Assembly (NCBI GenBank): GCA_023229825.1
Contig: JALNYN010000006.1
Location: forward strand, 255 to 64,254
Length of the DNA: 64,000 nucleotides
Direction: 5' to 3'
Source: Minisyncoccota bacterium
GTDB lineage: Bacteria > Patescibacteriota > Minisyncoccia > Phycocordibacterales > CAIJYI01
The notes below the pieces were generated by a model. It saw only the letters and a program-made list of their open reading frames with translations, made no database searches and was not told the origin of the DNA. Shown in pieces: positions 627-35,146 of this stretch. How positions within the stretch are numbered: the stretch's first letter is position 1; the number at the start of each line of letters is the position of its first letter. A program made the translations under genes and the position numbers.

Positions 627-3600
627 TTAATGTTTCTTTTTTGCGGGTTGAATAAACTCGTCCATTTGCGCGACAAGTTCGTCTATCACCGCGTTAATTC
701 TCAACGCCTGAATTTTCTCAATCTGCCACTTGTTCCCTATCTTTTTTTGAGAAAGAACCTGAATCTCTTTTTGCAAAACAACGAGTAATGCTTTTGTTGC
801 GATGTAATTCTTTTTCGCAAATTGTTTTTCTGCGACGGAAATTTGATTTAATAAAGAAGGACGAAGTTTTGAATCAAGTTTTTGAATTTCATTCTTTAAG
901 GTTTGGAAAGTGATAGTTTCTTTGTTCTCTTCCGTAAAAACGATTGAGTCAATTGTTCCGTTCCCATCGTTATCAAGAGCGAGTTCCTTTGCGTCATTTA
1001 AAGTACTCATTAGGAGCGTTGCTTTTGTTGAGGTGCTCACGGGTATATCGGTGAAGGTTTGCGATGCTTCTTTAACATCTCCTTGGTACTGTTCCAATTC
1101 AAGAGTAAATACGCCTGTTCCGATGCCTTGCAATTTGATTGTAGTGCTTGCTTCCAATTGGAAACCCAAATACTTCCCTTCTCCCATTTCTAAATAGTAT
1201 GAATTCGGCATTTCGGTATCATAAAAAGTGTAATTTGGAGTTGAGCTTGCTGAAATCCCTACATGGCCTCCTTGCTGGTTAAAAATATCTATCTGGACAG
1301 GAGATCGCAGAGAGAGACGCACTAGCTTTTTTAGACGAAACAAATCAAGCTGGCTTTTATCTGTTTTAATAAACCACAAATCTTTTTCTGGGTTTGGCGT
1401 GTTTTCGATAATTTTGCTTATCAAAGTTCTAGTGCTATCAACCTCAAGTATTGAAGCGTGAGATCTGTTTTTTTGAAGCCCGCCAAATAAAAAATAATAT
1501 GAGTTATTGTGTTCATTCAAATCCACAAAATACGTCTCCGTTGCCGTCGCCATTCCGATCTGGCTCGGCAAAACCACTCTGCCGTCACCGTCAAAAGTAA
1601 ACATCGGCTCAACATCAAGCTTACCTTCATCCCAGCAAAAGGTATTCATTCCCGCATTATTGCAGTACTGATGAAAATTTCCTTTGTATTCCAATCCGCG
1701 AATAGTGTCGGGAATTCCCCATCCGGCAATTTGTATAACGCGCATGCTTTTATGCGGAACCCAAGTGTCTATGTCATCATGAATTAATTGGGCGTTTTGT
1801 AACATATCCGTCCTCACCAATTTCGGATGGGAGAGATCATCATCCGGCGCCTGAGAACGACCGTAGTCTTTCCCGCTTAGGTAGTCCCGCAATCCCTCGT
1901 AAGCGGTTATCGTGGTTGTTCCATAATTCGTTTGATAAAAATCGAGTACCTTGGACGCATCATAAATCGGGTCACCGCTTAAGTTTCGCAGATTTTTGTT
2001 TTGGGAAATGATAGTTGTGTAGTTTTGGTTTTCGTCTATCACTCGTTCGATATATTTTTTTGACGGCAAAAGCGTATAGATCGATGGCATTTGCTGAGCG
2101 ACGCGCCGCCCTGTTTCTTTGTCGGACAATATTCCGCCCCACTCAGGAATATCTTCTTTTGTTCCATGTAAAAGCGTCGCGATCGCGTCCGGAGTGCCGA
2201 GTTGGGGTGAATCTACAAGAATAAGCATTTCGGTGCTGGTCGCGATATCGCTGTAGTCGTGAAGAATTTTTTTTGAGAGAAGTCCTCCCATTGAGTGCCC
2301 GATAATGGTAACCTTGCCCGTATCAGAGGTTTTGGCGAGGTTGCGAATTTCAGTGAGAAGATGCTCTTTGTCGGTTCCATATTTATCGTCATAATATATA
2401 TGCCCGTTTGGTGCTACATATCCATTGCTTAGTATTTGCGGAAAAGCGAGGCGCCAATCATAAGCGAGGACGCGGTAATCTTTCATCATCCCGTCAGTTT
2501 TCCATGTTTCTAGGTCTACAAGAAAACTTGAATATATGTTACTCGCCTTAAACCCGACATCTATAACCCCTGCATTTCCCCACTTGGTATATATGTCAGG
2601 GTTATCGCTTGAGCCGGCAGGTTTCATCATGAGTTCGTTGGTATCAGTCCACCAATTCGGTTCCCAAAGCTGGTCCTCGCAATCAGGATTGCTGCAGTCG
2701 TATTTGAATAGTCGCGACGCCTTAATCCCCGGCAAAAACGCTACATTACTATACCCTGTCATAAATATATACTCCGAGTTTTCCAGCTTCACCGTTCCGT
2801 CTTCCGTTTCGAAATGGTAATGATACGTTCCTTTCGAGAAGGTTAAGGTTCTTGAAAACGCTTCGCCGTTTGCGAGATTTCCATCGTGATATTCGATCGG
2901 AGTGGTTGTGGAAGTATCCGGAGCCATGCCGAGTTTGATCTCCCCCTGCGGACCGGTAAAGACAAGTCTGATGTGAGGGGTTGAAGCGGATGTGTCGGTA
3001 TACACGACTTTGAATAAGAAATTGGTTTTGTCCGCGGCCCCTCTTCGATCTTGGATGAGATCGTCTTCCCAGACGGAACCGTATTGCAAAGTTTTTTGAG
3101 ATGGAGAAACGGCATGTATCGGTCTGGCGTAAGGAAATTGATCGATAAGCGTTATTGGTACATCCGTCGGACGGTTCCAGTACAGTTCGTTTGTGATGGC
3201 GCTGAATTGATAAGGTGAATCGCAGAAACCGTCATTGGCGCTATCGGTACATTGATTATCGCTCAAGTAATTTCCTCCTTTCGGTAGTGGCGCTGAAATA
3301 GTAATGGTCGGAGCATAGGAAGATGCGGAAGACGGAAAAATGCTTTGTGTGTTATTCAAAAAATCATTTCGATAGATAGAGGTTGTTCCTTCATTTACGG
3401 CAACGAAATTCAATCCTATTCCGTTGTTTTCCACAATATTGTCGTGTACGGCATTCCGAACGTCCGTGCAATTCGTGGAAAAGTCTATACCGACAGCAAG
3501 ACCTTTTACTGTGTTTTCGGAAATATCCACTACGGTATCAGGAGATATCAGAGGCCGAAAACACGGTAATGACGGTACATACCAGGGACTCAATATACGT

Positions 3601-4685
3601 CCGAATGAAATGCCGGATGTGTTATCGCCTTGCGAAACAATAGTATTTTTACGCACGGATACGCTCTCAAAAATTCCCCCTCGTCCTCCGTAGACCATGA
3701 TCCCCGTGCCGTTTTGCAGAACATTAACGGTATTTCCTTCTATAATCACTTGTCTTGGTTCGCTGTCGAGAGCAATTGCATTAAGAATATTTAGAAATAC
3801 GTTATTTCGAATAGTAATGAAATATGGAATAAGCTCCGGATTTCCTCCATATACCCCGACATCGGTAATGTTTTGGAATGTATTATTGGCGATAATCGTG
3901 TTCGTGGATGAATTGTTAAATATTCCCTTTGCCCAGCTGTCAATGGTAAGATTTTTTATTGTGGTGTTATTTCGCCGAATATCCCCAGAACCTCTGAAAT
4001 ATATTGCACCCAAGTACGTGGTTCCGTCGCTTAATGTCGTATGTCCGTTTCCGTCGAGAGTAATGCCGTTATCATCAACCTGTATAGTCTCGTTTATATC
4101 TTGCGTGAGGGTGCAGGTTTTGGTTGATTGATCCCAAGCTCCGATCAAGGTACAGTCTCCTCCTGTCGCGTTATCTTTGATGAATTTTGTGCTTTTTTTA
4201 GTTTGGATGAAAACAAAATGATTTATCGCCATGTCTTGAGTATAGGTGTAGATTCCGTTATCGTCAGTGGTGAACTGCGTTAGGTTGTGATAATCGTCGT
4301 CATATTTATAGTAGGTTGTGTTTTTAAGAAAACCGGAGAGCGTAATTTGAGTTGTTGTTGCGTTGGTGGAAGTAGCTTTCTCTAATAGCATGGTCACCAC
4401 TTTCGGTTTTGAAGTGAAGTGAAGGTCGATGTTTTCGGTACTGTCGAGAGTGATGTTCAAATATTCGCTGTCGGTGATGGTGAAATGGGTGCCGATTCCG
4501 GAGATCTCGCCTTTTATTTGGAAGGGATCGTTTGGAATAAAATTCGACGGAGCAGGATTTAATGAGGCGAGCGTTTTTTGAGCGTACAAAATTCCGGCAA
4601 ATGTACTGCTGAGCAGCGCAACAATCGCCATTACAGTAAGAAAGATCTGACGGTGAATAGGTTTTGCCAAAAACTTTTTGTACAT
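627..4685 (-). CDS. large secreted multi-domain protein: N-terminal signal/anchor, right-handed beta-helix (pectate-lyase/NosD-like) region, LCAT/PGAP1-like alpha/beta-hydrolase lipase domain, C-terminal coiled coil
   Basis: 1352-aa ORF with N-terminal hydrophobic segment MAIVALLSSTFAGILYAQ. Repeated N-x-(V/I/F)-x-N / GG-containing beta-helix-like repeats (IANNTFQNITDVGVYGG, IRNNVFLNILNAIALD, IEGNTVNVLQNGTGIMVYGG). Lipase nucleophile-elbow GHSMGG (TIIGHSMGGLLSK) preceded by AYDWR, the (F/Y)DWR motif of LCAT/PDAT-type acyltransferases. Confidence 0.8.
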   Translation of the reverse strand: MYKKFLAKPIHRQIFLTVMAIVALLSSTFAGILYAQKTLASLNPAPSNFIPNDPFQIKGEISGIGTHFTITDSEYLNITLDSTENIDLHFTSKPKVVTMLLEKATSTNATTTQITLSGFLKNTTYYKYDDDYHNLTQFTTDDNGIYTYTQDMAINHFVFIQTKKSTKFIKDNATGGDCTLIGAWDQSTKTCTLTQDINETIQVDDNGITLDGNGHTTLSDGTTYLGAIYFRGSGDIRRNNTTIKNLTIDSWAKGIFNNSSTNTIIANNTFQNITDVGVYGGNPELIPYFITIRNNVFLNILNAIALDSEPRQVIIEGNTVNVLQNGTGIMVYGGRGGIFESVSVRKNTIVSQGDNTSGISFGRILSPWYVPSLPCFRPLISPDTVVDISENTVKGLAVGIDFSTNCTDVRNAVHDNIVENNGIGLNFVAVNEGTTSIYRNDFLNNTQSIFPSSASSYAPTITISAPLPKGGNYLSDNQCTDSANDGFCDSPYQFSAITNELYWNRPTDVPITLIDQFPYARPIHAVSPSQKTLQYGSVWEDDLIQDRRGAADKTNFLFKVVYTDTSASTPHIRLVFTGPQGEIKLGMAPDTSTTTPIEYHDGNLANGEAFSRTLTFSKGTYHYHFETEDGTVKLENSEYIFMTGYSNVAFLPGIKASRLFKYDCSNPDCEDQLWEPNWWTDTNELMMKPAGSSDNPDIYTKWGNAGVIDVGFKASNIYSSFLVDLETWKTDGMMKDYRVLAYDWRLAFPQILSNGYVAPNGHIYYDDKYGTDKEHLLTEIRNLAKTSDTGKVTIIGHSMGGLLSKKILHDYSDIATSTEMLILVDSPQLGTPDAIATLLHGTKEDIPEWGGILSDKETGRRVAQQMPSIYTLLPSKKYIERVIDENQNYTTIISQNKNLRNLSGDPIYDASKVLDFYQTNYGTTTITAYEGLRDYLSGKDYGRSQAPDDDLSHPKLVRTDMLQNAQLIHDDIDTWVPHKSMRVIQIAGWGIPDTIRGLEYKGNFHQYCNNAGMNTFCWDEGKLDVEPMFTFDGDGRVVLPSQIGMATATETYFVDLNEHNNSYYFLFGGLQKNRSHASILEVDSTRTLISKIIENTPNPEKDLWFIKTDKSQLDLFRLKKLVRLSLRSPVQIDIFNQQGGHVGISASSTPNYTFYDTEMPNSYYLEMGEGKYLGFQLEASTTIKLQGIGTGVFTLELEQYQGDVKEASQTFTDIPVSTSTKATLLMSTLNDAKELALDNDGNGTIDSIVFTEENKETITFQTLKNEIQKLDSKLRPSLLNQISVAEKQFAKKNYIATKALLVVLQKEIQVLSQKKIGNKWQIEKIQALRINAVIDELVAQMDEFIQPAKKKH

Positions 4686-4871: not shown

Positions 4872-5411
4872 CTATTCTTCGTCTGAAAGCAGGTACAAGC
4901 ATAAAAACATGAGCGGGATACCGAGTATGAATTCCGGAATGGCTAGTGTTTTGACGGTGTTATATATATGAGGCTCCACTCCGCCTGATCTCATATCGAT
5001 CCATGTTTTTGAAAAGAGTACATCGGAGTAAGAAAAAATAATAGCTCCAAGATTCATCACGATCATCAGGCTGATAAAGATCTGGGTGGATGAAAATCTT
5101 TTTATTTTACTGATCAGCCTCTTGGTAAAAACAAAAGAAAATATAAATATTGCCGGTATCAATATGACAAGTATATCAAAAGTATGATTAACCAAATGCA
5201 TCTGTTGAGAAATATAAAATCGTAAAATTTGAGAAAATATTATAAACAAGATCAGCCAAATTGAAAAATCGAACTGGTTCATCGGCTTGTCGATATCAAA
5301 AAAATCTTTATTGGTCATTTTCATAGAGAGGTGTTTAATGATTTTTCTAGTAAAAAATACGCGGGACATCAAACCCGGGAAAATTTCAGCCCGTCTATCA
5401 TTTTTCCCCAT
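4872..5411 (-). CDS. hypothetical membrane protein
   Basis: 179-aa ORF, 4-5 predicted TM segments (WLILFIIFSQIL, ILVILIPAIFIFSFVF, IFISLMIVMNLGAIIF). Confidence 0.45.
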   Translation of the reverse strand: MGKNDRRAEIFPGLMSRVFFTRKIIKHLSMKMTNKDFFDIDKPMNQFDFSIWLILFIIFSQILRFYISQQMHLVNHTFDILVILIPAIFIFSFVFTKRLISKIKRFSSTQIFISLMIVMNLGAIIFSYSDVLFSKTWIDMRSGGVEPHIYNTVKTLAIPEFILGIPLMFLCLYLLSDEE

Positions 5412-5509
5412 GATGAAAGATAGGCTGAAATTTTCCGCTGTTTGATATACGCGGACATATATACAGTATAAAACACAGGTGATAAAGTCCTGATAAAGTC
5501 TGACAAACC

Positions 5510-5538
5510 AAAAAAGCCTTAATTTTCAAGGCTTTTTT
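5510..5538 (-). terminator. rho-independent terminator downstream of idi operon
   Basis: hairpin aaaagcctt-aattttc-aaggctttt followed/preceded by T/A runs. Confidence 0.6.
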
Positions 5539-5562
5539 GGGTTTTTTAAAATTTTTTGTATT

Positions 5563-6096
5563 TTATCTTGAGTTATCCACAGGGCGGACTTGCAACAACA
5601 CGTCCGCAAATGAGATCTTAAACCAAGAAGTATACTGTTCGGGATGGACGCGCATATCTCCGAGTATGCTTTCGGGCGCCGCATATTTCCAACCGTCCGC
5701 CTCTTCCCTGTTCATCTCCGGAATACCGTCCCACACGCCGACCAAGACATGATCGTATTCATGTTCAGTGAGTCCGTTCGTGAATTCCGTCCGATACGTG
5801 AAAGAATATATTTCCGACAGAGGGCAATCAAAACCCATTTCTTCTTTGAGACGGCGATGCGCGGCATCTTCCGTACTTTCGCCCGGCCGAGGATGGCTGC
5901 AGCAAGTGTTCGTCCAGAGACCGCCGCAATGATATTTCTTTTTCGCGCGCTGCTGCAAGAGCATTTCGCCTTTCGATGAAAAAACAAAAATGGAGATCGC
6001 GCGATGGAGCTGTCCGCCGTTCTGATGCGCAGCTATTTTTTCGCAGATGCCGATCGGCGCGTCATTTTCATCGACGAGGATCACTTGTTCTTTCAT
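5563..6096 (-). CDS. idi: isopentenyl-diphosphate delta-isomerase, type 1 (Nudix fold)
   Basis: 177 aa; HRAISIFVFSSKGEMLLQQRAKKKYHCGGLWTNTCCSHPRPGES and EHEYDHVLVG match the type-1 IDI Cys/Glu active-site region; start overlaps upstream gene stop by 4 bp. Confidence 0.85.
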   Translation of the reverse strand: MKEQVILVDENDAPIGICEKIAAHQNGGQLHRAISIFVFSSKGEMLLQQRAKKKYHCGGLWTNTCCSHPRPGESTEDAAHRRLKEEMGFDCPLSEIYSFTYRTEFTNGLTEHEYDHVLVGVWDGIPEMNREEADGWKYAAPESILGDMRVHPEQYTSWFKISFADVLLQVRPVDNSR

Positions 6097-7691
6097 ATTT
6101 TGTTTTTGTAGGAATTAAGGAACATCTCGGATTTTTTCTGTTCCCTCTCCGCCTCGATCGCGGCCTTTTCAGTGATCGTAATGAAGTGAAGAAGCGGAGC
6201 CTCGTCTTCCAGCATTTCAAGCGATGAAAGCGCTTTTCGCGCGAGTTTCGCGTGCGCTTTTGCGAGTTTTGCATATTTTTTGAGCGTCGAAAACCAAAAG
6301 ATCTTTTTGAGTACTTCCCGGTCGGCTACGAGATCGATCACCGGTTTTTTCCAGCCCGACGCTTTAAGGTCGGCAAGCATCAGAACGACCACGGTACTCA
6401 GATGTCCGCGAGCCATGTCTTCTTCCCAATCGTGCGCGTCATCGTTCAGCTGCATGGCGATCAGATAATTTTTGAAATAGGCGATGAGATGTTTTACTTC
6501 GGCCGAATCAATGGGATACCCCATGTTGACGAGCATAGCGACCGGGCCCAAGATGTGTCCCGATGCCGGACGGTATTTATTTTCATACCGCGCATAATCA
6601 GGAAGGACGTCGGGGATCGTAAATTCTGAACCGCTGACTTTCGTACGGCAGTGCATGGTTTCCCACGTATTCGCACCATCCAGATCGTCCATGAGCTTTC
6701 TGAAAAATTCTGCGAATCCCGTCTTTGCCGGCAAAACGGTACTGAAAAGTTCAACATAGCTTCTCGCGAATAAATTGGCCGTCGGGAGAATATGCGGATC
6801 GGCCGCTTCGTCTTCATCCCAAAAATCATCATAAATAATGAACGCCGTCCAAAAGAAAATATTCGCCAATCCCATTTCCGCGATCAGTTCATCAGGAATT
6901 TTTTTTGCTTTCTTTCCGAGTGCTTGCTTCATGTAATAAGACATGAGCGACATTTGTTTGTCGGTGTTGCCGCGCATGGTATTTTTGATGCATTGCCGAG
7001 CAAAAGAACGAAGCTCGGGAGAAAGGGCGGAAAATCTTCTCTCCGCCGCCGCCATGATCTTATCCACCATCGCCTGTTCTCCTTCATTGAAGACGATTTC
7101 TCCGCTTTTTAATGCTAACGACGCATTGATATTTTTTTCCAACGAATGAAGATACAGCTCTTTTGCCGACACGACAGCCGGCGTCATTTCGACGCGAAAC
7201 GCCTCTGCGATCTTTTCTGCGGTGTCGAGCATCTCTGAATACTGGGCAAGGTTAGGCAGTTCAACGCCGAACGCCGACAAAAATCGCAAAATACTTGCAT
7301 TGGTCACCGGATCAATGTCGTTCTTTTTCTTTCCCTTTGATGGCAATTCTGAATAATACGGACCTCCCTCTTGGCTCTCGAGCGCCACTAATATATTTAA
7401 AATTTGCGCCAGCCATTCCCCGTCGATCAATTCTTTATCATATTCCGCGATCGCCGAAAGCGCGTAAAAATTCTCTCCGATATTTTTACTCAATTTTCCG
7501 TCAGCCGATCGCTGCGATACCAGAAACCGCGCGGTTTTACTCTTTTCCGCTTTTAATTCTTCTGAATTTTTTGAACGATCGAGAAAGGAAAGTACTATGG
7601 CAGAAGTTATCAATGATGGCGCTCCGGACTGGTCGGAGAAACTTCCGTCCTTTCTCTGTTCTTTTTTTATGCGTACTCTATGCTTATCCAT
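6093..7691 (-). CDS. isoprenoid-synthase-fold protein (polyprenyl synthase / class I terpene synthase-like) with ~250-aa N-terminal extension
   Basis: 532 aa; two Asp-rich motifs about 135 aa apart: FIIYDDFWDEDE (FARM/DDxxD-like) and MQLNDDAHDWEED (SARM QxxDDxxD-like / NSE-like); translationally coupled to idi downstream and to a histidine kinase gene upstream. Confidence 0.6.
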   Translation of the reverse strand: MDKHRVRIKKEQRKDGSFSDQSGAPSLITSAIVLSFLDRSKNSEELKAEKSKTARFLVSQRSADGKLSKNIGENFYALSAIAEYDKELIDGEWLAQILNILVALESQEGGPYYSELPSKGKKKNDIDPVTNASILRFLSAFGVELPNLAQYSEMLDTAEKIAEAFRVEMTPAVVSAKELYLHSLEKNINASLALKSGEIVFNEGEQAMVDKIMAAAERRFSALSPELRSFARQCIKNTMRGNTDKQMSLMSYYMKQALGKKAKKIPDELIAEMGLANIFFWTAFIIYDDFWDEDEAADPHILPTANLFARSYVELFSTVLPAKTGFAEFFRKLMDDLDGANTWETMHCRTKVSGSEFTIPDVLPDYARYENKYRPASGHILGPVAMLVNMGYPIDSAEVKHLIAYFKNYLIAMQLNDDAHDWEEDMARGHLSTVVVLMLADLKASGWKKPVIDLVADREVLKKIFWFSTLKKYAKLAKAHAKLARKALSSLEMLEDEAPLLHFITITEKAAIEAEREQKKSEMFLNSYKNKI

Positions 7692-9126
7692 TTTGATGTT
7701 TGGGGATGTTAATGATAAATGCCGTTCCTTTGCGCGGCTCGCTCACGACCTCTATGGTACCATGAAAATCATTTTCAACAATTCTTTTTACGGTATACAA
7801 TCCGAGTCCGGTTCCTTTGCCTTCTTTTGTGGTAAAGAACGGATCGAATATCTTTTCCAAATTTTCTTTGGCGATGCCAACGCCTCGATCAGAAACGGTA
7901 AATATCACTCTGCCGTTTTTTTGTACTAACGAAAGCGCTACTTCTTTTTTTTCATTCGCCTGCGATGAAGCATGCGCATCGATCGCATTGGATGCCAGAT
8001 TGAGCGCGACTTGCCCCCACTTCGGTGCGCTCCCGAATATTTTAATATTTTCCGGTGCGGTTAGTTTGATCCCGACGTTCGCTTTTATGGCTTTGTGCAG
8101 CAAAACTTCAATGATCTGTTTCGTTTCTTCATTCACGGAAAACGTCGTTTTGTGTTCTTCGTTGGCGATCTGTTTGCGAACGGCAATGACAAAGTCCTCC
8201 ATTCTTTTTGAAGCGGCGATAGCTTTGTTCAAATATATTTTTGTTTCGTACAATGCGCTTTTTTCTTCCGCCTTGACCATTTCCATATTCAGGGTAACCG
8301 CACTGAGAGGACTCATTAGATCATGAAAAAGTCCTGATGAAAGGCGCCCGAATTCGGCAAAACGATTGAGCTGTGTCATTTTTTCCAATTGCGCTTCTCT
8401 CAATTCTTTCGTCCTTTCCTGCACTTTCACTTCCAGAGAATCGCGCTCCGCTTTCAGCGCCACTTCGGAATTTCTCGCGCGCGCCAAAGATTTTTCGATC
8501 TCGCGGTTGGAAAGCCATGAGACGGTGGCGATGATCATGAATATTACCGAAACCATAACAACATCTTTTACACTCCAGACATCGGTCATCCAATATCGAT
8601 TAACGCTTATCGCTTCACTCCATTCAAGATGTCCCACAAAAAACAGAACAGCACAGACCATTAAAGTCACGATAAACGCGAAACGGGCATGTATAAGTAT
8701 GCCCGACATGACAATGATCAACACATAGAATAAAAGAGCTACCTGAATCTCAACCCCCCACCGATAGGTCATGTAGACGGCGAGCAGAAAAAAAACGCTC
8801 AATAAAGCATATGATGAAAACCGCGAATAACCACACCGCGATAAAATAAACAGCGCGAAAAAAAATAAAAAAATTACGGAAAGAACGAATAAAGATATCG
8901 TATTATTTGCGTATGATTGTAGCCCGGTGTCACGAAAAATCAGATGGATAAGTAAACCTACGAAGACAAGCATGATTGCCAAAACCAAAAGGATATTCAG
9001 AATAAATTCTTGCCGTGATATGTCGGGGTCCGACGATTTTGGCAATATAAGTTTTTTGGCACTGTAAAAAATTTTCTGCATACAAGACGAAATATCAAAG
9101 GTTCCGCATAGACAATAACAACCCAA
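7684..9126 (-). CDS. membrane sensor histidine kinase
   Basis: 480 aa; ~6 N-terminal TM helices, H-box FHDLMSPLSAV, N/G boxes LASNAIDAH, SDRGVGI, GTGLGLYTVKRIV. Confidence 0.85.
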   Translation of the reverse strand: MGCYCLCGTFDISSCMQKIFYSAKKLILPKSSDPDISRQEFILNILLVLAIMLVFVGLLIHLIFRDTGLQSYANNTISLFVLSVIFLFFFALFILSRCGYSRFSSYALLSVFFLLAVYMTYRWGVEIQVALLFYVLIIVMSGILIHARFAFIVTLMVCAVLFFVGHLEWSEAISVNRYWMTDVWSVKDVVMVSVIFMIIATVSWLSNREIEKSLARARNSEVALKAERDSLEVKVQERTKELREAQLEKMTQLNRFAEFGRLSSGLFHDLMSPLSAVTLNMEMVKAEEKSALYETKIYLNKAIAASKRMEDFVIAVRKQIANEEHKTTFSVNEETKQIIEVLLHKAIKANVGIKLTAPENIKIFGSAPKWGQVALNLASNAIDAHASSQANEKKEVALSLVQKNGRVIFTVSDRGVGIAKENLEKIFDPFFTTKEGKGTGLGLYTVKRIVENDFHGTIEVVSEPRKGTAFIINIPKHQNG

Positions 9127-9353
9127 GTTAATGGGTTATTATGGCTGGGGAAAATACATATAAAAAAACAAAAAATTATTGGAACCAAGGCGCGCCTGCA
9201 TCCATAACGGTCACAACTAAAGCGAGCAATGCCGCGTTATCTCTTACTTTTTTGTTGGTCAAAACTTCTTTTATGATCTTGTCCATATGTTTTGAATTAA
9301 TGCTAATAAATTCCACCGACCTTTAGTCTTTCATTATATCAAAATATCGCAGA

Positions 9354-10043
9354 CTATTCAATTTTGTAACCAAAACCGGCCATGGTGTGAATGGCATCGC
9401 TTTTTTTGCATCGCGAAAGTTTCCTTCGCAATGACGCGATGTGGACTTCTACGGTGTTGGTAAACGGATCGGCATTTACATCCCAGACATGTTCCAAGAT
9501 CGCAGTTCTTGAAACAAACTGCCCGCGATTCCGCAGTAAAAATTCAAGCAGAACGGACTCTTTAAGAGTCAGTAATATCTTCTTCCTTCCGCACTTCACT
9601 GTTCGACCGCCCGTGTCGCAGAGCATATCACCGAGCTCAAAAACAGACGGCTCGATCCTGGTGGGACGGCGCAAGATCGCTTTTATACGAGCCAAAAGTT
9701 CTGCAAAAGAAAACGGTTTCGTCATATAATCATCAGCCCCGGCCCGCAGGAGATCGACCTTGGTATCTATTTCTGAACGGACCGACAACATGAGTATGGG
9801 TACATCCCTCCCCTTTGCTCGGAGTTCGACGCATATTTCTCGTCCGCTTTTGTGAGGCAGGTTGTTGTCCAAAATGAGAAGATCATAATCATTGGACAGG
9901 GCCTTCCATATCCCTATTTTTCCATCATCCGAGATATCCACGGAAAAACCTTCATCCGACAGAGATGTTTGTAAAAAATCCAGTATACTCTTGTCGTCCT
10001 CCACTATTAATATATTCATGGGAAACCGGATATATGACAGCAC
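9354..10043 (-). CDS. OmpR/PhoB-family response regulator (receiver + winged-helix)
   Basis: 229 aa; MNILIVEDD...LILDNNLPHKSG...LMLSVRSE receiver motifs and C-terminal winged-helix (VWDVNADPFTNTVEVHIASLRRKL); likely true start at the internal MNILIVEDD (~10019). Confidence 0.9.
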   Translation of the reverse strand: MLSYIRFPMNILIVEDDKSILDFLQTSLSDEGFSVDISDDGKIGIWKALSNDYDLLILDNNLPHKSGREICVELRAKGRDVPILMLSVRSEIDTKVDLLRAGADDYMTKPFSFAELLARIKAILRRPTRIEPSVFELGDMLCDTGGRTVKCGRKKILLTLKESVLLEFLLRNRGQFVSRTAILEHVWDVNADPFTNTVEVHIASLRRKLSRCKKSDAIHTMAGFGYKIE

Positions 10044-10403
10044 TTTATGGTAATTCTAGAATAGCATAAATGGCGCAATAATGCATGGGTGGCAAGAAAA
10101 ACGGCTTTATCGCCGGACCCGCGAGCCCTTGTGTTTTGGTTCTATTTTGTAATTTTTTTGCAGATAAAGCAGATCGTCCGTGAGTCCAAGCAGCAGGCGT
10201 TCGCCATTTTTTTGTTGCGGCGTCATTTGACGAAAAAGATCCAAAACGGTCGCGAGCGTTTGGAAATAATCGTCGGACAGAACGTGGAATTCGAGGCTTT
10301 TGGCGCGGCGAAGATCGACATCGTTCGCAACGAAACGAACGTCATGCAGAAACGGAGATATTACAAAATCAGAGCAAGCGATACGATACATATCTGTTGT
10401 TTG

Positions 10404-11451: not shown

Positions 11452-12711
11452 TCATTGTGTACTCTTCAGTGCACAGTGGATGAATTTCTCTAAATTAATT
11501 TCAGACTGTTCCTTCTGTGGCGAGCTTCCCGTACCCATAAAAAACCACATAAAAACAGCGAGAGCGGCTGATGCCGTGAGTGCAGCAAAAGCAAAAGCGT
11601 AAGCGGGATCAAAGACCCATAATGCACCGGCGATCACCGAGGCGGGAAGATACATTAAACCGGTGACAAAATTGTACATTCCGATGGCTGTGGCCCGGCG
11701 GTCTTTTTCCATGTCGGAAATAAACGCCTTGCTCTGCGCTTCATCAATACTGTAAAAAATACCGAACAGCAAAAAGAGAACGATCACTTGCCATTTCTCC
11801 GAAGCAAAAACGAAGCCGAGAGACATGCTGATATACGCGAGATACCCGATCATTATGATATACTTTCGCCCGATCACATCGCCGAGCTTGCCGACTGGCG
11901 CCGATACCAGCACGAAAGAAATATTGAAAAGCGCGTAAAGAAGAACGACATCTTTAATGGTAAAGCCGATATCATACGCCTTCAAAAGAAGAAATCCAAA
12001 ACTGAAATACGCCAGAGAAAAAATACTCGCGGGAATAAGATACGTTTTAAATTTTTCACCCAAAGCCCCCCATGCTTTTCCAATGTCTTCTCTTTCGTGC
12101 GGAATTCCCGGACGATCTTTGGTCAGAGAAAGAACAAGAACGGAAAGTGCCGCCGCGATTATGGCAAAGATAAAAATAGTGCGGAACGTACCCGTGCTTG
12201 TTCCGAAACGAGCAAGTAAAAAATAGGCAATGAGCGGACCAACGACCGCACCCGATTTGTCCATCGCTTTGTGCACGCCAAAAGCATATCCCCTATTCCT
12301 TTCTTCCGCGACATCCGCAAGCCATGCATCCCGGGGAGGACCGCGAAAACTTTTTCCCAAACGTTCAATGATGCGGAACGAGGCGAGCAGAGCAACGGAA
12401 CTCCCGATCAAAAGCATTACTTTCGACAGCGTTGAAAAACCGTAACCGGCGAGAGTAAGCCGTTTCCTTTTTCCGGACCGATCCGATAGCCATCCGGAAA
12501 GGTAATCCAATGAAGACGCACAAAAGTCTGAAACGCCTTCTATCATGCCAAGGATCCCGGCTGAAGCGCCGACGACCACCGTAAAAAATATGGAAAATAC
12601 GGAAAAGATCGCCTCGGAACTGACATCCGTCAAAAAACTGACCAACCCGAGCCGAAGCACATCCGGATGCACATCTAAAAATCTTTTTTTCATAGTATTA
12701 TTCTTTTTCAA
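11452..12711 (-). CDS. MFS transporter
   Basis: 419 aa, 12 predicted TM helices, MFS signature-like LSDRSGKRKRL after TM2. Confidence 0.85.
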   Translation of the reverse strand: MKKNNTMKKRFLDVHPDVLRLGLVSFLTDVSSEAIFSVFSIFFTVVVGASAGILGMIEGVSDFCASSLDYLSGWLSDRSGKRKRLTLAGYGFSTLSKVMLLIGSSVALLASFRIIERLGKSFRGPPRDAWLADVAEERNRGYAFGVHKAMDKSGAVVGPLIAYFLLARFGTSTGTFRTIFIFAIIAAALSVLVLSLTKDRPGIPHEREDIGKAWGALGEKFKTYLIPASIFSLAYFSFGFLLLKAYDIGFTIKDVVLLYALFNISFVLVSAPVGKLGDVIGRKYIIMIGYLAYISMSLGFVFASEKWQVIVLFLLFGIFYSIDEAQSKAFISDMEKDRRATAIGMYNFVTGLMYLPASVIAGALWVFDPAYAFAFAALTASAALAVFMWFFMGTGSSPQKEQSEINLEKFIHCALKSTQ

Positions 12712-14458
12712 TTTTCTTTTCTCTGAATTCTTTTCTGCTCAACCCTTCTATCGTGTCAGGAAGCGCAGTTCCAAGTTTTGATGAGTATTCTTTTGCAACG
12801 GCAAGCAACAGGTCTGAACTTTTATCCGGAGAATCCTCCACGCTTCTCATTAATGACCACGCTCCTCCGGCGACCTCCACCCGAGCATCCCCGCGATCGT
12901 TGGCTTCTCTGACAATACGCCGAGAATCCGCATCGGAGGGCGAATACCACCCGCCCTCAATAAAAACAAACCCGTCTTTCGTTTTATAATTTTTCACGCA
13001 CAATCCGGAAAGCTTTCCCGCCATTTTAACTAAAATCGAATCGTTCACCAAAACGACCGCGTCGTTCGCAAGCGATTCGACGAGCAGCGGCTCCGCTTCG
13101 GGGCAAAGATACCATCCGGTATGTCCCGGCTTGATCGTTTGTTCAAAAGAAGAAACAACGGGTCGAAGCGCAACCCTCGTTTCCGGAGGTAATTCTGAAA
13201 AAGGGATCATGGACAAAAGCATCCCGATATGGAAACGATGCTTTTCGATATTTTTTACCGCAATGCCGATAAGCTCCGAAACGATCGGAAGATGCACGGT
13301 TTGCGAAACATCTATCGGGCGCAGCGGGGCGAGTTTCTCACTGATAGCCGTCGATGATCGAAAGAGCTGTTTCAAAATTTTGGCGTGCCATGGCTCCATT
13401 TCTGTTCGCAGTCGTTCAAGAAATTTTTCGCGATCACCCTCGGGGATATCCAAAAGCAGGTCCCCGAGAAAATCTAAATTCCCGAACAAGCGTTCTTTCT
13501 CGTTATCGGAAATGATCTCCATCCGTTCGTCTCCTTTTTCTGAAATGGAAATTTCCCTCGTTTCCTCGATAAGTTTTTCGGCTGTTTTTTCAAACTCGGG
13601 ATGTGCTGACAAAAAAATGGTCAGTCCTTTTTTTAGCAAAACACCTTGTCCTCGCGCGAGGATCTCGGGAAGCAGATGCTCTATCGTGACCAGAAGATCG
13701 GACACGGATGACACCTCCTTTTCCAAAAGTGAAGAATTTTCTTCCGCCTCTCTCCCCGCTTTCGCGCGGTCGATCGACCCGGAAAGCGCGGCAAACATGT
13801 CATCGATAAAAAACGTTCCCCTCCACGAGCGGTCGGAAGACAAGGCATCGGACATCATTCTCGAAACCGATTCAACATCATCCGAAAAGGACATGATCTC
13901 GATCTCTTTCGGTCCGAATTTTTTTCCCAAAAAACATTCTCTGAGGATCGACGGAATAACTTCGGTAAGTTCCGAATGCTCGCGGAACACATTGCAAAGG
14001 CCCGTTGACAGAGACGCTTGGTCAAAGGAGTCGGGTCTCTGATATGACCTGATAAACCTCGGGAGGATATCCGCAAAAAACCTCGCCTCCTCGTCTGTCG
14101 GACGGACTCTTGATAGCGCGTTCTTTAATAAAATGAAAAAGTTGTTCGCATATTTGACTGAGACCTCCTCGTTTTCATTTTTTGAAAAGGCATCCAGATA
14201 TTCAAGAAATGAAGAAAAGGAGAGATCGTATGATGCATTTTGAAACGCCAAATACAGTTCATGAAATTCTTCGCCTGACGCCGTTTCGAGTGCGGCGGCT
14301 GAGATACCCGCCGATTCGGTTTTTTTTGCTCCGCTGAGCCCGCTCAATGCCAGCGAAGGATCGGACTCGGCCTGTCCTCGGAGCGCGGCGATCCTTCTCT
14401 CTATCTTCCCTTCCAACCGTCGGCGGATCTCATCTAGATCTTGATTAATTTCCTCCAT
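12698..14458 (-). CDS. hypothetical protein (coiled-coil / alpha-helical)
   Basis: 586-aa ORF overlapping the MFS start by 14 bp; no recognisable motif. Confidence 0.55.
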   Translation of the reverse strand: MEEINQDLDEIRRRLEGKIERRIAALRGQAESDPSLALSGLSGAKKTESAGISAAALETASGEEFHELYLAFQNASYDLSFSSFLEYLDAFSKNENEEVSVKYANNFFILLKNALSRVRPTDEEARFFADILPRFIRSYQRPDSFDQASLSTGLCNVFREHSELTEVIPSILRECFLGKKFGPKEIEIMSFSDDVESVSRMMSDALSSDRSWRGTFFIDDMFAALSGSIDRAKAGREAEENSSLLEKEVSSVSDLLVTIEHLLPEILARGQGVLLKKGLTIFLSAHPEFEKTAEKLIEETREISISEKGDERMEIISDNEKERLFGNLDFLGDLLLDIPEGDREKFLERLRTEMEPWHAKILKQLFRSSTAISEKLAPLRPIDVSQTVHLPIVSELIGIAVKNIEKHRFHIGMLLSMIPFSELPPETRVALRPVVSSFEQTIKPGHTGWYLCPEAEPLLVESLANDAVVLVNDSILVKMAGKLSGLCVKNYKTKDGFVFIEGGWYSPSDADSRRIVREANDRGDARVEVAGGAWSLMRSVEDSPDKSSDLLLAVAKEYSSKLGTALPDTIEGLSRKEFREKKIEKE

Positions 14459-20633: not shown

Positions 20634-21608
20634 TCAGAACAAGAGATATGGACTGATAATGTCCATGTGGCTGTTCGCCCAGAAGCCGATCGCAGTCACA
20701 ACGACGCTGAGAAACAAAATCGCCCAAGCGTACGCAACCTTGTCTCTGAACTCGATCTCCAACAGCTTTTCAAGTAGATAGAAAGCCGAAAAAGTTCCCG
20801 CGACGCCGGAAATAACCGGCAGATCCGCTAACGTTCCAATGGCAATACCGGCAATACCGGCCGCGATCGTTAATATTTGCATCCGACCATAAGAAAACTC
20901 GTGAGATGACCATTTAGAGCTCATTATGAGAAGACCAAGATAAAATGCGAAAGCGCCGAACCATTTCGCGCCGCTTTCAAATATGCCAACATGCTCAGGC
21001 ATAAAGCCCGAAAGCTTCACAGAAATATACAGCGCAAGAATAAAGAATGCGGTAAGCGTTCCTTTCGTGACAGCCTTTGTATCCTCAAGCCCAACGAACC
21101 CGACAAGCCCCATGAGCGCGCCTACAGAGAAGAAACCTATAAGTTCGCTCTGGTACCAAACGGCCACAGCGCCCCAAACAAGCGTCAGTATTCCAAAGAA
21201 TATTTTCGGATTATCGCGTTCGTGCAACACACCGGTAAGCCCAAGTGCGCCGCTAAAAACGAGACATCCGAAGAATGCCAGCCAGATACTATTCGCGCCG
21301 TCATAATACAAACCGTTCACGATGAGTACGACCCCAAAAAGGTAAAGGATCCCCTCCCATAATTCTTTCGGTACATCTGCAAGACACCGGATCAATTTGG
21401 CAACGTAATACCGAAATAGAAACAAAAAGCAGCATGCTCCGACGATGATCGCGACGGTTAGCATCACATTCGTAAGAGTGAACATTCGAGTGATCACCCC
21501 GACGGCTTTCTGCGCGGTCGAAAGTTCCGGACATACATCTGCAAACGCTAGCGCGGGAAGCAGAGAAAAGAAAAGGAGAAAGACAGCGATGTTTTTTTTC
21601 ATGCACAA
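20634..21608 (-). CDS. hypothetical polytopic membrane protein
   Basis: 324 aa, N-terminal signal-like segment and ~9 TM helices; no catalytic motif recognised. Confidence 0.55.
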   Translation of the reverse strand: MCMKKNIAVFLLFFSLLPALAFADVCPELSTAQKAVGVITRMFTLTNVMLTVAIIVGACCFLFLFRYYVAKLIRCLADVPKELWEGILYLFGVVLIVNGLYYDGANSIWLAFFGCLVFSGALGLTGVLHERDNPKIFFGILTLVWGAVAVWYQSELIGFFSVGALMGLVGFVGLEDTKAVTKGTLTAFFILALYISVKLSGFMPEHVGIFESGAKWFGAFAFYLGLLIMSSKWSSHEFSYGRMQILTIAAGIAGIAIGTLADLPVISGVAGTFSAFYLLEKLLEIEFRDKVAYAWAILFLSVVVTAIGFWANSHMDIISPYLLF

Positions 21609-25808: not shown

Positions 25809-28076
25809 CTACCTTGGCCTGGAAATTATCGTTTGCGCTGAATCAGTATGATTTCCGAGACCGATACCGAGCATGGAACCCATTTTGAGGTCATTGGATC
25901 CGGTAATCGTCGTAAAACGACCGGTGTTCGGACTTTGCCGTCCGGTGAGTATATCCATGCCTTCATATAAATATTTTTTATTCGCCATCCAATCGGCGAT
26001 CTGATCCATGACGAGTTCCACCGGCCACGGGCGAAGAAGCCTCGTGATGCGGAGTTCTTCAAGCATCCGGCAACCTTCCACTCTTGTTTCTTCTTTGTTG
26101 AGAAGTTTCAATATCTCTCCTTTATGTTTTTCAAATTCTTCGGCCGCGCTTTCGTACACTTCCGGCAATTTTTCTCTTTCAAAAATATGATCCTTCAGAT
26201 AAGCGATCATGAGTTCCGTCTGTTCGACCGCGCTTTTTCCGGAAGAGAAAGGAACCGGCCTGGTTTCCACAAGGAACCAGCCCTTTCGCGGAGAATCTTC
26301 CGTAAAAACGCTTTCTCCCCGCTCTTTGTGCCGATCCGCATTTTGTACAATATCGCCGTAGCCCTCCGCTTTCAATTTTTCCCCAAAACGTTCAATGAGA
26401 TATTCCGTCGTCATCGGTTTTCCTTGTTCGTCGTCCGGCATTTGGTATTTGAGGTACGCGCCGCGTTCTTTCGCTTCCGCCAATTTTTCGGCGGTGAATG
26501 GGATCGGCGGAAGTTTTTCCATGTCTGCTTTTATTCCCATACTCCAAGGTCCGCGAACGTTTTCATGCCCCAAAATCGACTCGGCGGCGGAAATCTGCTC
26601 CATGATCGGCATCGTTGATTCTATTTCGGGGAGATGCAATGCCGGTACGGTATTTTTCTTCAAAAATTTATACGCTACCGTTCTCGGGTTTCCAAAAAAA
26701 CTTTGCGCGATGCCGCTTCTGTCAACCCCGACTTTATGTATCCCCAAACCGCCCGCGTTATGCTTTTTTTCAAGCAATGATCTTCTCCATTTTTCAGATT
26801 TTTTTGTTTTGATACCCGCCAAACTTCTTGCGAGAGAGGCAAGATTGTGGGGCATATCGTTTGAATCATACTTTCCGCCGCCTGGCATATTTCTGCGATC
26901 TTCCATGTAACGGTGAAAGAATTCTTCTCTCATTTCCCACGCTTTTTTATCGTCCCTTCCCGCCAAGCTTTCCATAATGAAATTACTGGGAAAAACTTCA
27001 AGCGATCGCTCCAGCAGTTTTAACGCAAGATCGTCACTGCGGCCGGTGAGAGCCGAAAATGCGAGATAATTAGTTTTTTCATGTTGATTACCTTTTTTAA
27101 ATATTTCTTCAAAACACCAAGAAAGCATTTCATCGGTTTTTTCGCTTTGAACGCCGCTCAAGCTTTCGGCGATCATATCCGGCGCCTCATTAACATGCGG
27201 ATTTTTTTCATGCAATTTGTCAATTTCTCTTGAAATTGTTTGCCATCCTTTTTTGTCGGATTCATCACATGCTTTCATTTCAAAATCTAATTTTTGTTTT
27301 TGAGGAAGAAACTCTTTGTATTTTTCCATCAGCTTTTCTCTCCATGCGTTTGCTTCTTCATTATTTATCCCGCGATAACTTTCCCCGATGTATTCTTGTT
27401 CGGCATCACCGCACAGTTTGGTGCCCCGCTCTCGCATTTCTTTTGCCCGATCGTTCTCTATCCCCGCCAAACTGGCAAGTGCGGCCTGCGCCAATTTTTT
27501 ATATGTTTTGTCTTCTTCCCCCATTTTCATGACCTTTTCCCTCCATTCTCTCGCCGAAGGAGTGTCAACCCCAGTATAACTCAAGGTAATCGCTTCCCAA
27601 TATCCCATATCGGTTTTATATCGTTCTCTCATTTGTTCCGCTTTCGGACTGTCCTCTCCGGCGAGCGCCTGCAAAACATCTTCTATTTTTACCCCCAAAA
27701 CCGTTTCAGACTTTCTCTCTTCAAGCAAATACTCAAGCGTTGAAAAAGCGTTTTCATCAAACCGCTCCGCCTCTCCAATTTCGTGCTTGCGTTTTCGCTC
27801 TTCAAAATAACGTGCGATGGAATTCCATAGACCGTGTTTTTCCGTGGTTTCCGTTCTCATTTTCGGGATCAAGCGAGTAGGTTCGCGCATTGTTTCAGTT
27901 TTCGGCGTTTCCGACGGAAAATTCATCGCTTCGATCTTTTGTTTTATTCTTTCTTGCTGTTCCGTGGTATCCATCTCCGGTTTCTGCGCCGGCATTTCCA
28001 CCGATCCTTCTTTCGGCGCACGTTCCGCCACTTTTTCTCCCATAACCTCTTCTAAAGAATGTTCTTGGTTTTTCAT
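25809..28076 (-). CDS. large hypothetical protein with ~7 HEAT/PBS-lyase-like SLAG-x5-KA-x-EMRE repeats
   Basis: 755 aa; repeated ALASLAGIENDRAKEMRE / ESLAGRDDKKAWEMREE / ARSLAGIKTKKSEKWRRS / LQALAGEDSPKAEQMRERY units; C-terminal ~250 aa unknown. Confidence 0.6.
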   Translation of the reverse strand: MKNQEHSLEEVMGEKVAERAPKEGSVEMPAQKPEMDTTEQQERIKQKIEAMNFPSETPKTETMREPTRLIPKMRTETTEKHGLWNSIARYFEERKRKHEIGEAERFDENAFSTLEYLLEERKSETVLGVKIEDVLQALAGEDSPKAEQMRERYKTDMGYWEAITLSYTGVDTPSAREWREKVMKMGEEDKTYKKLAQAALASLAGIENDRAKEMRERGTKLCGDAEQEYIGESYRGINNEEANAWREKLMEKYKEFLPQKQKLDFEMKACDESDKKGWQTISREIDKLHEKNPHVNEAPDMIAESLSGVQSEKTDEMLSWCFEEIFKKGNQHEKTNYLAFSALTGRSDDLALKLLERSLEVFPSNFIMESLAGRDDKKAWEMREEFFHRYMEDRRNMPGGGKYDSNDMPHNLASLARSLAGIKTKKSEKWRRSLLEKKHNAGGLGIHKVGVDRSGIAQSFFGNPRTVAYKFLKKNTVPALHLPEIESTMPIMEQISAAESILGHENVRGPWSMGIKADMEKLPPIPFTAEKLAEAKERGAYLKYQMPDDEQGKPMTTEYLIERFGEKLKAEGYGDIVQNADRHKERGESVFTEDSPRKGWFLVETRPVPFSSGKSAVEQTELMIAYLKDHIFEREKLPEVYESAAEEFEKHKGEILKLLNKEETRVEGCRMLEELRITRLLRPWPVELVMDQIADWMANKKYLYEGMDILTGRQSPNTGRFTTITGSNDLKMGSMLGIGLGNHTDSAQTIISRPR

Positions 28077-33390: not shown

Positions 33391-33406
33391 TCAATATCCC
33401 GAATAC

Positions 33407-34951: not shown

Positions 34952-35020
34952 ACATTATTTATTTAAGAAATCCGAAACAGACACTTAATTCTTTTAAAAT
35001 CCGTACTCTACTAATTTACG

Positions 35021-35066
35021 AAAAAATCGCCTTGCAAAAGGGTCTCCTTTGCAAGGCGATTTTTTG
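35021..35066 (-). terminator. bidirectional rho-independent terminator between tRNA-Gln and the RT operon
   Basis: aaaaaatcgccttgcaaa-agggtctcc-tttgcaaggcgatttttt, perfect 18-bp stem with A-run and T-run. Confidence 0.8.
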
Positions 35067-35071
35067 CGTGC

Positions 35072-35140: not shown

Positions 35141-35146
35141 AATTTA

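Follow-up and report, generated by a model that had tools for sequence, protein, structure and literature searches.

The closest described counterparts of the locus treated here are bacterial systems in which an enzyme of the trans-isoprenyl diphosphate synthase (trans-IDS) type prenylates a tryptophan (Trp) of a small peptide encoded beside it. The locus is a four-gene cassette on the minus strand of a 64,000-nucleotide stretch (the window) of a Minisyncoccota bacterium (assembly GCA_023229825.1, contig JALNYN010000006.1, positions 255 to 64,254). It encodes, in this order, a response regulator, a 36-amino-acid (aa) peptide, a sensor histidine kinase and a protein named X, the 532-aa product of the open reading frame (ORF) at 6093-7691, and is followed in the window by idi, the gene of a type-1 isopentenyl diphosphate isomerase. 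The reading favoured here, and considered somewhat probable, is that X prenylates the peptide on its Trp and so makes a signal that acts by way of the polytopic kinase and the OmpR-type regulator.

Regarding ComQXPA, the published criteria (PMC4008528) describe ComQ as a single-domain PF00348 protein of about 300 aa, ComX as a PF05952 peptide of 52-73 aa with a Trp in the last 5-10 residues, ComP as a kinase with multiple transmembrane segments, HisKA_3 (PF07730) and HATPase_c (PF02518), and ComA as a Response_reg plus LuxR/GerE regulator. The cassette was compared with these criteria, with real ComQ sequences and with a Bacillus comQXPA locus (L094). It has in common with ComQXPA four adjacent same-strand genes with overlaps, a response regulator with a multi-transmembrane kinase as its partner, an enzyme of trans-IDS fold that lacks RRG and whose first aspartate-rich motif (FARM) has the form DD.xDEDx (IYDDFWDEDE in X, IMDDLEDEDN in ComQ), and a short, unannotated-looking precursor with a Trp a few residues from the C-terminus (WFQ here versus WDG). 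In 70 non-identical cassette peptides this Trp stands 0-7 residues from the C-terminus, in agreement with the position required of ComX. The differences are the gene order (in ComQXPA lettering A-X-P-Q here, in 62 of 68 loci, versus Q-X-P-A), the enzyme (532 aa and two domains, without PF00348, with an extra toroid-like N-terminal domain and an intact second aspartate-rich motif, SARM), the peptides (34-42 aa versus 52-73 aa, and unrelated in sequence) and the host group (Patescibacteria versus Firmicutes). By this comparison the cassette would work like ComQXPA but is no member of it.

In Paenibacillus alvei, PalQ, a protein of the isoprenoid-synthase superfamily that was once mis-annotated as a terpene synthase and stands far from the named subfamilies, carries both FARM and SARM and attaches a prenyl group to a conserved Trp that lies at the C-terminal end of the co-encoded PalX or close to it, in a cluster that includes the histidine kinase PalP (PMC10853753). 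By its published description, PalPXQ resembles the cassette in joining a superfamily enzyme with both aspartate-rich motifs to a Trp-containing precursor and a kinase; PalX differs in its NHLP-type leader, its much greater length (with a leader cleaved between T72 and D73) and its strictly C-terminal Trp, and neither a response regulator nor a toroid domain is described for that system (PMC10853753). ChrPC (Hubrich et al. 2024, summarised in PMC13290415) is a trans-IDS-like prenyltransferase acting on an internal Trp and fused to an MstE-like class II cyclase. By description the same domain pair occurs in the long form of X, with a DLDDT motif and QW-like repeats, and MstE is among the fold matches of the N-terminal domain of the window protein. 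The window X differs in having lost DxDD and half of the toroid, X has the order cyclase-like domain then prenyltransferase, and no two-component system is mentioned for ChrPC (PMC13290415). According to a 2026 review, every characterised trans-IDS-like prenyltransferase (ComQ, PalQ and the P domain of ChrPC) targets Trp (PMC13290415). The fold of these enzymes, the first aspartate-rich motif (D288 and D292 in X), the Gln ahead of the SARM and a co-encoded Trp peptide (67/68 loci) are all found in the cassette.

Like the cassette, AgrBDCA and ComCDE group the gene of a short precursor with those of its dedicated maturation enzyme, of a polytopic kinase that senses peptides and of a regulator. 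They differ in using thiolactone formation or leader cleavage and an HPK10 kinase with a LytTR regulator, where the cassette has a proposed prenylation and a HisKA kinase with an OmpR regulator.

The conserved cassette and its small peptide gene

Loci were surveyed in 11 independent metagenome contexts and 79 species-level genomes, and linkage was counted over the 68 Patescibacteria loci with at least 2.7 kb of DNA upstream of X. In 67 of these the gene immediately upstream of X, on the same strand, is that of the kinase. The peptide gene is likewise present in 67; in 66 of them it precedes the kinase gene, and in the remaining one it lies inside the maximal kinase ORF. The regulator gene is upstream and on the same strand in 62 loci, downstream in three and missing from three; one X (L036) is an orphan. 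This linkage persists where X proteins are only about 30% identical. All-against-all clustering of the proteins encoded around the loci revealed no other widely conserved neighbour beyond regulator, kinase and X, the next cluster covering 13 loci. The conserved unit is regulator, 36-aa Trp peptide, kinase and X, and the other neighbours vary.

The recorded lineages of the loci are Paceibacteria, Saccharibacteria/Saccharimonadales, Magasanik-, Falkow-, Morani- and Doudnabacteria and CPR2, and a few loci are recorded under other labels ('uncultured Gammaproteobacteria', Omnitrophota, Pacearchaeota). The cassette occurs in the cultured Minisyncoccus archaeiphilus PMX.108 (L055:4253-8233) and in a complete Saccharibacteria genome (L064).

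Among 57 cassettes the mean pairwise identity was highest for the regulator (45.5%), followed by the cytoplasmic part of the kinase (41.3%), the C-terminal domain of X (37.0%), the membrane part of the kinase (33.5%) and the N-terminal domain of X (27.5%). The hydropathy profile of the kinase shows about six hydrophobic segments across residues 36-208 without a sizeable loop, which indicates a polytopic, membrane-embedded sensor. The peptide-sensing kinases ComP and AgrC share this build of about six transmembrane segments without an extracytoplasmic domain. The H-box reads GLFHDLMSPL (HDLxxPL), and its His is invariant in the 57 cassettes. At most loci the kinase stop codon overlaps the start of X. 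Rare proteins in which kinase and X are fused in one reading frame were also found (P0030, P0045, P0111, P0121); at one fusion locus (L095:4001-6742) a NUDIX gene, the regulator gene and the peptide gene still stand upstream, and the kinase part looks N-terminally short. Such proteins are either true fusions or frameshift artefacts at the overlapping stop and start, and are treated as weak evidence only.

The peptide of the window, MDKIIKEVLTNKKVRDNAALLALVVTVMDAGAPWFQ, carries its Trp at position 34 in the tail WFQ. Exactly this product was called by the JGI, ENA and Logan gene finders (P0282, 'hypothetical'), and no record of it came from an NCBI source. ORFs of 35-38 aa with related sequence were present at the same position in the first other genomes inspected, and across all loci the length ranges from 34 to 42 aa. 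Three positions, L9, R15 and W34, never vary among the 70 non-identical peptides, and M1 and P33 hardly do. The N-terminus is conserved (M..LIK..LT.K..R); the middle is variable, being hydrophobic in Paceibacteria-like loci and polar or charged in Saccharibacteria-like loci; and the Trp, usually within PW, is followed by a variable tail of 0-7 residues. To judge from sequence, this anatomy fits a precursor made of a leader and a core.

That the small ORF truly codes for a protein and is under purifying selection follows from the excess of third-position changes among peptide pairs that are at least 60% identical (nucleotide differences at codon positions 1:2:3 of 286:248:624) and from the preponderance of synonymous over non-synonymous changes in close pairs (16 and 4 codon changes, respectively, between the genes of L007 and L022). 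A hidden Markov model (HMM) of the peptide, run over the 1526 open frames of the window, gave a single significant match, at 9176-9286 (E 4.9e-20), and no second peptide or second copy of X was found in the 64 kb. A 12-bit match at 20924-21016 was considered as a second peptide and rejected, having neither a Met nor a Trp. Also ruled out was a small membrane protein, the hydrophobic stretch being at most about 16 residues long and polar or charged in Saccharibacteria-type loci. A resemblance of the N-terminal MxxLIxxxL to ComX was dropped as lying within chance.

Protein X and neighbouring isoprenoid-supply genes

Sequence searches with X against Pfam, NCBIfam and PDB (phmmer and profile) yielded no usable match, and no Pfam family was reached at E ≤ 1. 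The family itself is large. A word-index search gave 395 matches, every one unnamed or 'hypothetical' and from metagenome-assembled genomes (MAGs) of Patescibacteria, and an exhaustive search at E ≤ 1e-3 gave 1415 representatives at 50% identity. A protein identical to X is on record, as hypothetical, from a Candidatus Paceibacterota MAG, which bears out the guess, made in an earlier note on this DNA from the letters alone, that the window comes from a small-genome bacterium.

The same note had taken X for an isoprenoid-synthase-like enzyme, and in this respect it was right about the fold. A full-length AlphaFold2 model built from a 79-sequence alignment (predicted local distance difference test score (pLDDT) 94.2, predicted template modelling score (pTM) 0.88) is all-helical, and the best 50 PDB matches found by Foldseek were all trans-isoprenyl diphosphate synthases or the Trp prenyltransferase Ord1, with a probability of 1.00, alignments of about 310-370 columns, 12-16% identity and target-normalised template modelling (TM) scores of 0.51-0.74. 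In the model, helices 203-529 keep the ten-helix order of the trans-IDS fold. The first aspartate-rich motif lies at the C-terminal end of helix 267-291 and the second at the end of helix 397-420, so that neither of the findings named beforehand as fatal to the idea, a non-isoprenoid fold or motifs outside the active site, was obtained: the motifs end the helices that match D and H. Both motifs that had been noticed are present (residues 286-295 and 414-425), at a spacing of 128 aa instead of the claimed 135 or so, and RRG is indeed absent from the entire sequence.

Twelve residues of the C-terminal domain are invariant in 57 divergent orthologues with a mean identity of 37% in this domain, namely W281, D288, D292, R310, N341 and E344 in the first half and Q414, D417, D418, D421, D425 and G429 in the second. 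Gln414 stands three residues before D417, ahead of the second motif. A Gln ahead of the SARM or pseudo-SARM is proposed to help recognise indole in trans-IDS-like Trp prenyltransferases (PMC13290415); it also precedes the second motif of canonical synthases such as IspB (FQxxDD), so that this feature does not discriminate.

X is like the canonical trans-IDS enzymes (IspA, IspB; PF00348) in fold, in helix order, in the aspartate-rich motifs on helices D and H and in an FQxxDDxxD-like second motif. It differs from the chain-elongating members in having no RRG after the first motif, no PF00348 match and an extra N-terminal domain; sub-threshold PF00348 matches occur in just five of 79 family members (best E 0.013). 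Profile-profile alignment (hhalign) of the X family with Escherichia coli IspB was not significant (probability 0.7%), the aligned stretch being the second aspartate-rich motif alone (against FQLIDDLLD), and the corresponding test with ComQ, detailed below, was not significant either. Because both tests were insignificant, no homology of X to trans-IDS proteins is claimed beyond the modelled fold.

The N-terminal extension had been put at about 250 aa; it exists, and is closer to 200 aa, the helices of the synthase fold beginning near residue 203. Residues 1-205 modelled alone (pLDDT 86) gave weak Foldseek matches (E about 1e-2), nearly all to alpha/alpha toroids, with query-normalised TM scores of 0.4-0.5 and coverage of about half a toroid. 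Among them were ent-copalyl-diphosphate synthase, squalene-hopene cyclase, MstE and drimenyl-diphosphate synthase. In line with this, sub-threshold Pfam matches to Prenyltrans (9/79) and SQHop_cyclase_C (8/79) occur in the family, the long-form member P0160 reaching 25.3 bits on the latter against a cut-off of 26.1. Long-form homologues of about 640-670 aa carry in the N-terminal domain the motif YPDDLDDT[FA]CAL and QW-like QxxDGSW repeats. YPDDLDDT, the DxDD(T) signature of class II terpene cyclases, occurs in 28 of the 77 complete X proteins of the loci. Loci of this form, with the cyclase motif in the N-terminal 320 aa or so, are L011, L051, L053, L064-L066, L076, L077, L080, L084, L085 and L087.

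The window X is of the short form, with NIGENF and a 15-aa deletion where the long forms have YPDDLDDT, and the C-terminal half of the toroid is missing. Because the DxDD motif is replaced and half of the toroid has gone, its N-terminal domain is read from sequence and model as a degenerate, catalytically dead remnant of a class II cyclase-like domain. It probably keeps a non-catalytic role, since E105, Y112 and N131 remain invariant in the 57 orthologues.

Regarding the isoprenoid supply, idi scores above both NCBIfam equivalog cut-offs for a type-1 isomerase (NF002995, 164.9 bits with a cut-off of 127; TIGR02150, 126.3 bits with a cut-off of 105.8), and its translation shows TNTCCSHP and EHE, the catalytic motifs of this family. 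The substrate pool of X had been supposed to be fed by Idi. Such a link to the isoprenoid supply does exist, although it is facultative: in 10 of 84 loci (the window and nine others; phmmer 1e-25 to 1e-65) idi was found no more than 7 kb away, directly after X in the window, L016, L050 and L025 and beside the regulator gene in L001, and it is usually missing. A canonical IspA/IspB-like polyprenyl synthase is encoded beside the cassette in five loci (L068:4347-5384, L076:8859-9926, L084:5398-6450, L085:6272-7309 and L087:8803-9840). One or the other lies within 7 kb in 14 of the 84 loci and flanks the cassette directly in most of these. Because a canonical synthase is encoded beside X in five loci, X is argued to consume prenyl diphosphates and not to make them. 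As the lone isoprenoid neighbour, idi accompanies 8 of 49 short-form and none of 28 long-form (DxDD) X proteins; the canonical synthase accompanies 4 of 28 long-form and 1 of 49 short-form proteins. For the 13 loci that have neighbours of this kind, a Fisher test gave about 0.007 (computed by hand and ignoring phylogeny). These counts hint that short-form X uses short donors and long-form X longer chains that a cyclase could fold.

Proposed mechanism and competing explanations

The proposal that Trp34 is prenylated and that the product is a signal is made because the set of enzyme, Trp precursor, kinase and regulator matches the logic of ComQXPA and PalPXQ and the reviewed preference of such enzymes for Trp. 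X would bind a prenyl diphosphate through its two Mg-binding aspartate-rich motifs and pass the prenyl moiety on to the invariant Trp close to the peptide's C-terminal end, so that the peptide would be the substrate and its Trp the modified residue. In the window genome the donor would be dimethylallyl diphosphate from the co-transcribed Idi, and elsewhere a product of the adjacent polyprenyl synthase. The lipidated peptide, probably after proteolytic trimming and release, would be the ligand of the roughly six-helix kinase sensor, and the kinase would then phosphorylate the regulator. In long-form X (about 650 aa) the DxDD-bearing N-terminal domain may in addition cyclise the attached prenyl chain, as reported for ChrPC.

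Several results weigh against this reading. Four of the peptides had no Pfam match at E ≤ 10, ComX (PF05952) included, and a real ComX scored by the peptide HMM reached 0.8 bits, inside the shuffle range (up to 6.1 bits). An alignment of the X family with 14 ComQ sequences reached a probability of 0.4% and E 0.14, with only the FARM stretch aligned (against IMDDLEDEDN). The window kinase is of the HisKA type (weak PF00512) without a PF07730 match, which the Bacillus locus has, and the regulator is of the OmpR type (Trans_reg_C), GerE reaching just E 0.15. The second aspartate-rich motif of X is fully intact, as opposed to the pseudo-SARM of ComQ, and other diphosphate chemistry is possible. 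The neighbour clustering showed no conserved protease, exporter or immunity gene beside the cassette. Idi and canonical synthases are absent from most loci, and none of the 37 larger ORFs scanned in the window encodes another isoprenoid-pathway enzyme, although the window cannot speak for the genome. Finally, the tight overlap of kinase and X and the rare fusions would also suit a physical kinase-X sensing complex.

The alternative that survives best, unlikely though it is, makes the prenylated peptide mainly an effector, a membrane-active lipopeptide used against hosts or competitors of these episymbionts, with the two-component system serving regulation, auto-induction or immunity as NisRK does for a lantibiotic. 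The enzyme-plus-peptide evidence is the same as for the signal; prenylation raises the membrane activity of peptides (PMC13290415), many of the peptides are hydrophobic in their central part, and Patescibacteria live attached to host cells (PMC11665869). Yet kinase (67/68) and regulator (62/68) are linked to X as tightly as the peptide is, conserved immunity or ABC export genes did not emerge from the neighbour clustering, and the core is short, so that what is left after a likely cleavage would amount to a few residues, as in ComX.

Slightly less probable still is a role for X as an accessory sensor in the cytoplasm, binding an isoprenoid diphosphate (farnesyl diphosphate, for example, or the undecaprenyl diphosphate pool) and modulating the kinase, with the small protein as a second modulator, in the service of envelope or lipid-carrier homeostasis. 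The stop/start overlap of kinase and X and their natural fusions are what such a complex would lead one to expect, the aspartate-rich motifs would stay conserved in a pure ligand sensor too, and neighbouring idi or synthase genes suit any isoprenoid-related role. The fusions number about four among more than 1400 cluster representatives, however, and a single frameshift at the overlap could yield them. A sensor would also leave unexplained the invariant Trp in the C-terminal region, with its variable tail, of a peptide that is not a membrane protein, as well as the catalytic DxDD signature in the class II cyclase domain of long-form X, and the known relatives with this architecture are all enzymes whose target is Trp (PMC13290415).

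That X is a divergent prenyl diphosphate synthase or class I terpene synthase, making a small-molecule isoprenoid from Idi-derived precursors under two-component control, was the view of the earlier note and is regarded as improbable. The trans-IDS fold with FARM and SARM both intact, the sub-threshold polyprenyl_synt, Terpene_synth_C and Terpene_syn_C_2 matches of some family members and the translational coupling of idi to X in the window genome speak for it. On the other side, X lacks both RRG and a PF00348 match, five loci encode a canonical synthase next to it, idi is missing from most loci, and the co-conserved Trp peptide finds no explanation. To see X as a metabolic enzyme that is subject to signal control is not in keeping with a conserved unit made of regulator, peptide, kinase and X, usually without idi. 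X is better understood as the enzyme that matures a peptide signal, a part of the signalling system and not its target, and the cassette as something other than regulated terpenoid synthesis in the ordinary sense.

The weakest candidate, to be given very little credence, is a regulatory leader peptide (an upstream ORF or ribosome-arrest peptide like the Trp-containing TnaC) controlling kinase-X expression, for which one can cite the position 50-100 nucleotides (nt) upstream of the kinase gene, the stem-loop between the two in the window and a conserved Pro-Trp near the stop that recalls the arrest motifs of TnaC and SecM, but which is at odds with strongest conservation at the N-terminus (residues 1-16), at or past the tunnel exit, with a Trp-to-stop distance of 0-7 codons unsuited to position-specific arrest, and with an X left without a substrate.

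Layout of the locus, other features and significance

The coordinates of the features are summarised in Table 1. As the earlier note had read them, four minus-strand ORFs are present, idi (5563-6096), X (6093-7691), kinase (7684-9126) and regulator (9354-10043), with overlaps of 8 bp between kinase and X (7684-7691) and of 4 bp between X and idi (6093-6096). The regulator had been placed in the same overlapping block, to which it does not belong, 227 nt separating the regulator and kinase ORFs; this gap is occupied by the conserved 36-aa gene (9176-9286), which had been overlooked. The assignment as a two-component system stands, the regulator matching Response_reg (6.4e-26) and Trans_reg_C (9.7e-23) and the kinase HATPase_c (1.6e-25) and, weakly, HisKA in Pfam.

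The maximal ORFs extend to 229 aa for the regulator (from GTG at 10043) and 480 aa for the kinase (from TTG at 9126). The true start of the regulator is likely the ATG at 10019 (221 aa, beginning MNILIVEDD), because regulators of 221-222 aa are encoded in the loci of other genomes, and that of the kinase is likely the ATG at 9081 (465 aa), again to judge from its orthologues.

The promoter-like site 5' of the peptide gene (TTGAAT-17-TATAAT with an extended TG, 10/12 matches) is the best in 5300-10400, an interval in which such sites are no more numerous than expected from shuffled sequence. The stem-loop between the peptide and kinase genes has arms that are 91% complementary and no T-run after it, hence it is not a canonical terminator; it could set the ratio of peptide to kinase expression. 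The hairpin past idi likely marks the end of the operon transcript that carries idi. A search for regulator binding sites as direct repeats near the two promoters gave nothing convincing.

Table 1. Features of the cassette locus, with positions in the window
Feature	Coordinates	Strand	Evidence or remarks
OmpR/PhoB-type response regulator	9354..10019	minus	221 aa from ATG at 10019; Response_reg and Trans_reg_C
Promoter-like site	9333..9361	minus	consensus match alone; overlaps the 3' end of the regulator gene, 5' of the peptide gene
Precursor peptide gene (putative precursor), 36 aa	9176..9286	minus	translation and peptide HMM
Stem-loop, 11-bp arms, 6-nt loop	9115..9142	minus	between the peptide and kinase genes
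Polytopic sensor histidine kinase, 465 aa from ATG at 9081	7684..9081	minus	HATPase_c, weak HisKA
X N-terminal domain, residues 1-205, resembling a partial alpha/alpha-toroid	7077..7691	minus	model and Foldseek
X C-terminal domain, residues 206-532, trans-isoprenyl-diphosphate-synthase fold	6093..7076	minus	model and Foldseek
X first aspartate-rich motif IYDDFWDEDE, residues 286-295	6807..6836	minus	translation
X second aspartate-rich motif QLNDDAHDWEED, residues 414-425	6417..6452	minus	translation
Type-1 isopentenyl-diphosphate isomerase idi, 177 aa	5563..6096	minus	NCBIfam cut-offs
13-bp perfect hairpin with T/A runs on either side	5508..5540	unassigned	terminator-like site, 23 nt past the idi stop

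Elsewhere in the window, just downstream of the cassette region, a 1352-aa ORF (627-4685, minus strand) shows a hydrophobic segment at its N-terminus, NxxI repeats that recall a parallel beta-helix and a GHSMGG motif of the lipase/esterase type. A low-GC island (GC content 0.29 at 32-34 kb), located at 32254-35141, adjoins tRNA-Gln (35070-35141) and encodes an AbiJ/Abi_C-like protein (32254-33390) and a defence-type reverse transcriptase of 514 aa (33407-34951; PADLOC AbiP2/DRT, E 9e-143, full length); the whole has the appearance of an anti-phage island that inserted at a tRNA. A LAGLIDADG_3-like ORF (52377-53051; Pfam E 1.3e-6, with no single stretch over the threshold) adjoins tRNA-Leu (52285-52369). 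Large ORFs without a Pfam family at E ≤ 1e-5 include 12698-14458, 25809-28076 and 54959-56266 (586, 755 and 435 aa among them), which is typical of the dark matter of Patescibacteria.

A literature search found no paper describing the cassette and none tying ComQXPA, ComQ or pheromone signalling to Patescibacteria, and neither two-component systems nor quorum sensing are mentioned in a PNAS perspective and an mBio study on these organisms. Both X and the 36-aa gene are labelled 'hypothetical' wherever they are named at all.

The broadest form of the proposal is offered tentatively, as a statement falling a little short of probable: Patescibacteria would carry a phylum-wide system of cell-to-cell or cell-to-host signalling by a Trp-prenylated ribosomal peptide, terpene-cyclised in the long-form lineages. 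The makers of the peptide would form a third group of trans-IDS-like peptide prenyltransferases, one that diverged independently and is joined to a class II cyclase domain, and its reader would be a polytopic kinase that co-evolves. For the enzyme family, this would add a third lineage of trans-IDS-like Trp prenyltransferases for peptide lipidation, with more than 1400 clusters at 50% identity. The family holds natural cyclase-competent and cyclase-dead forms with an apparent specialisation in donor length, which is relevant to peptide-lipidation tools (PMC13290415), and the long-form motif predicts prenylation plus cyclisation of a ribosomal peptide in Saccharibacteria-type lineages.

Patescibacteria account for much of the diversity of bacteria and combine minimal genomes with a dependence on host cells. 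A cassette retained across the phylum in such small genomes must do something important. If the proposal is true, these ultra-small episymbionts would have their first candidate for a quorum-sensing or pheromone circuit, and communication in the candidate phyla radiation (CPR) would become directly testable.

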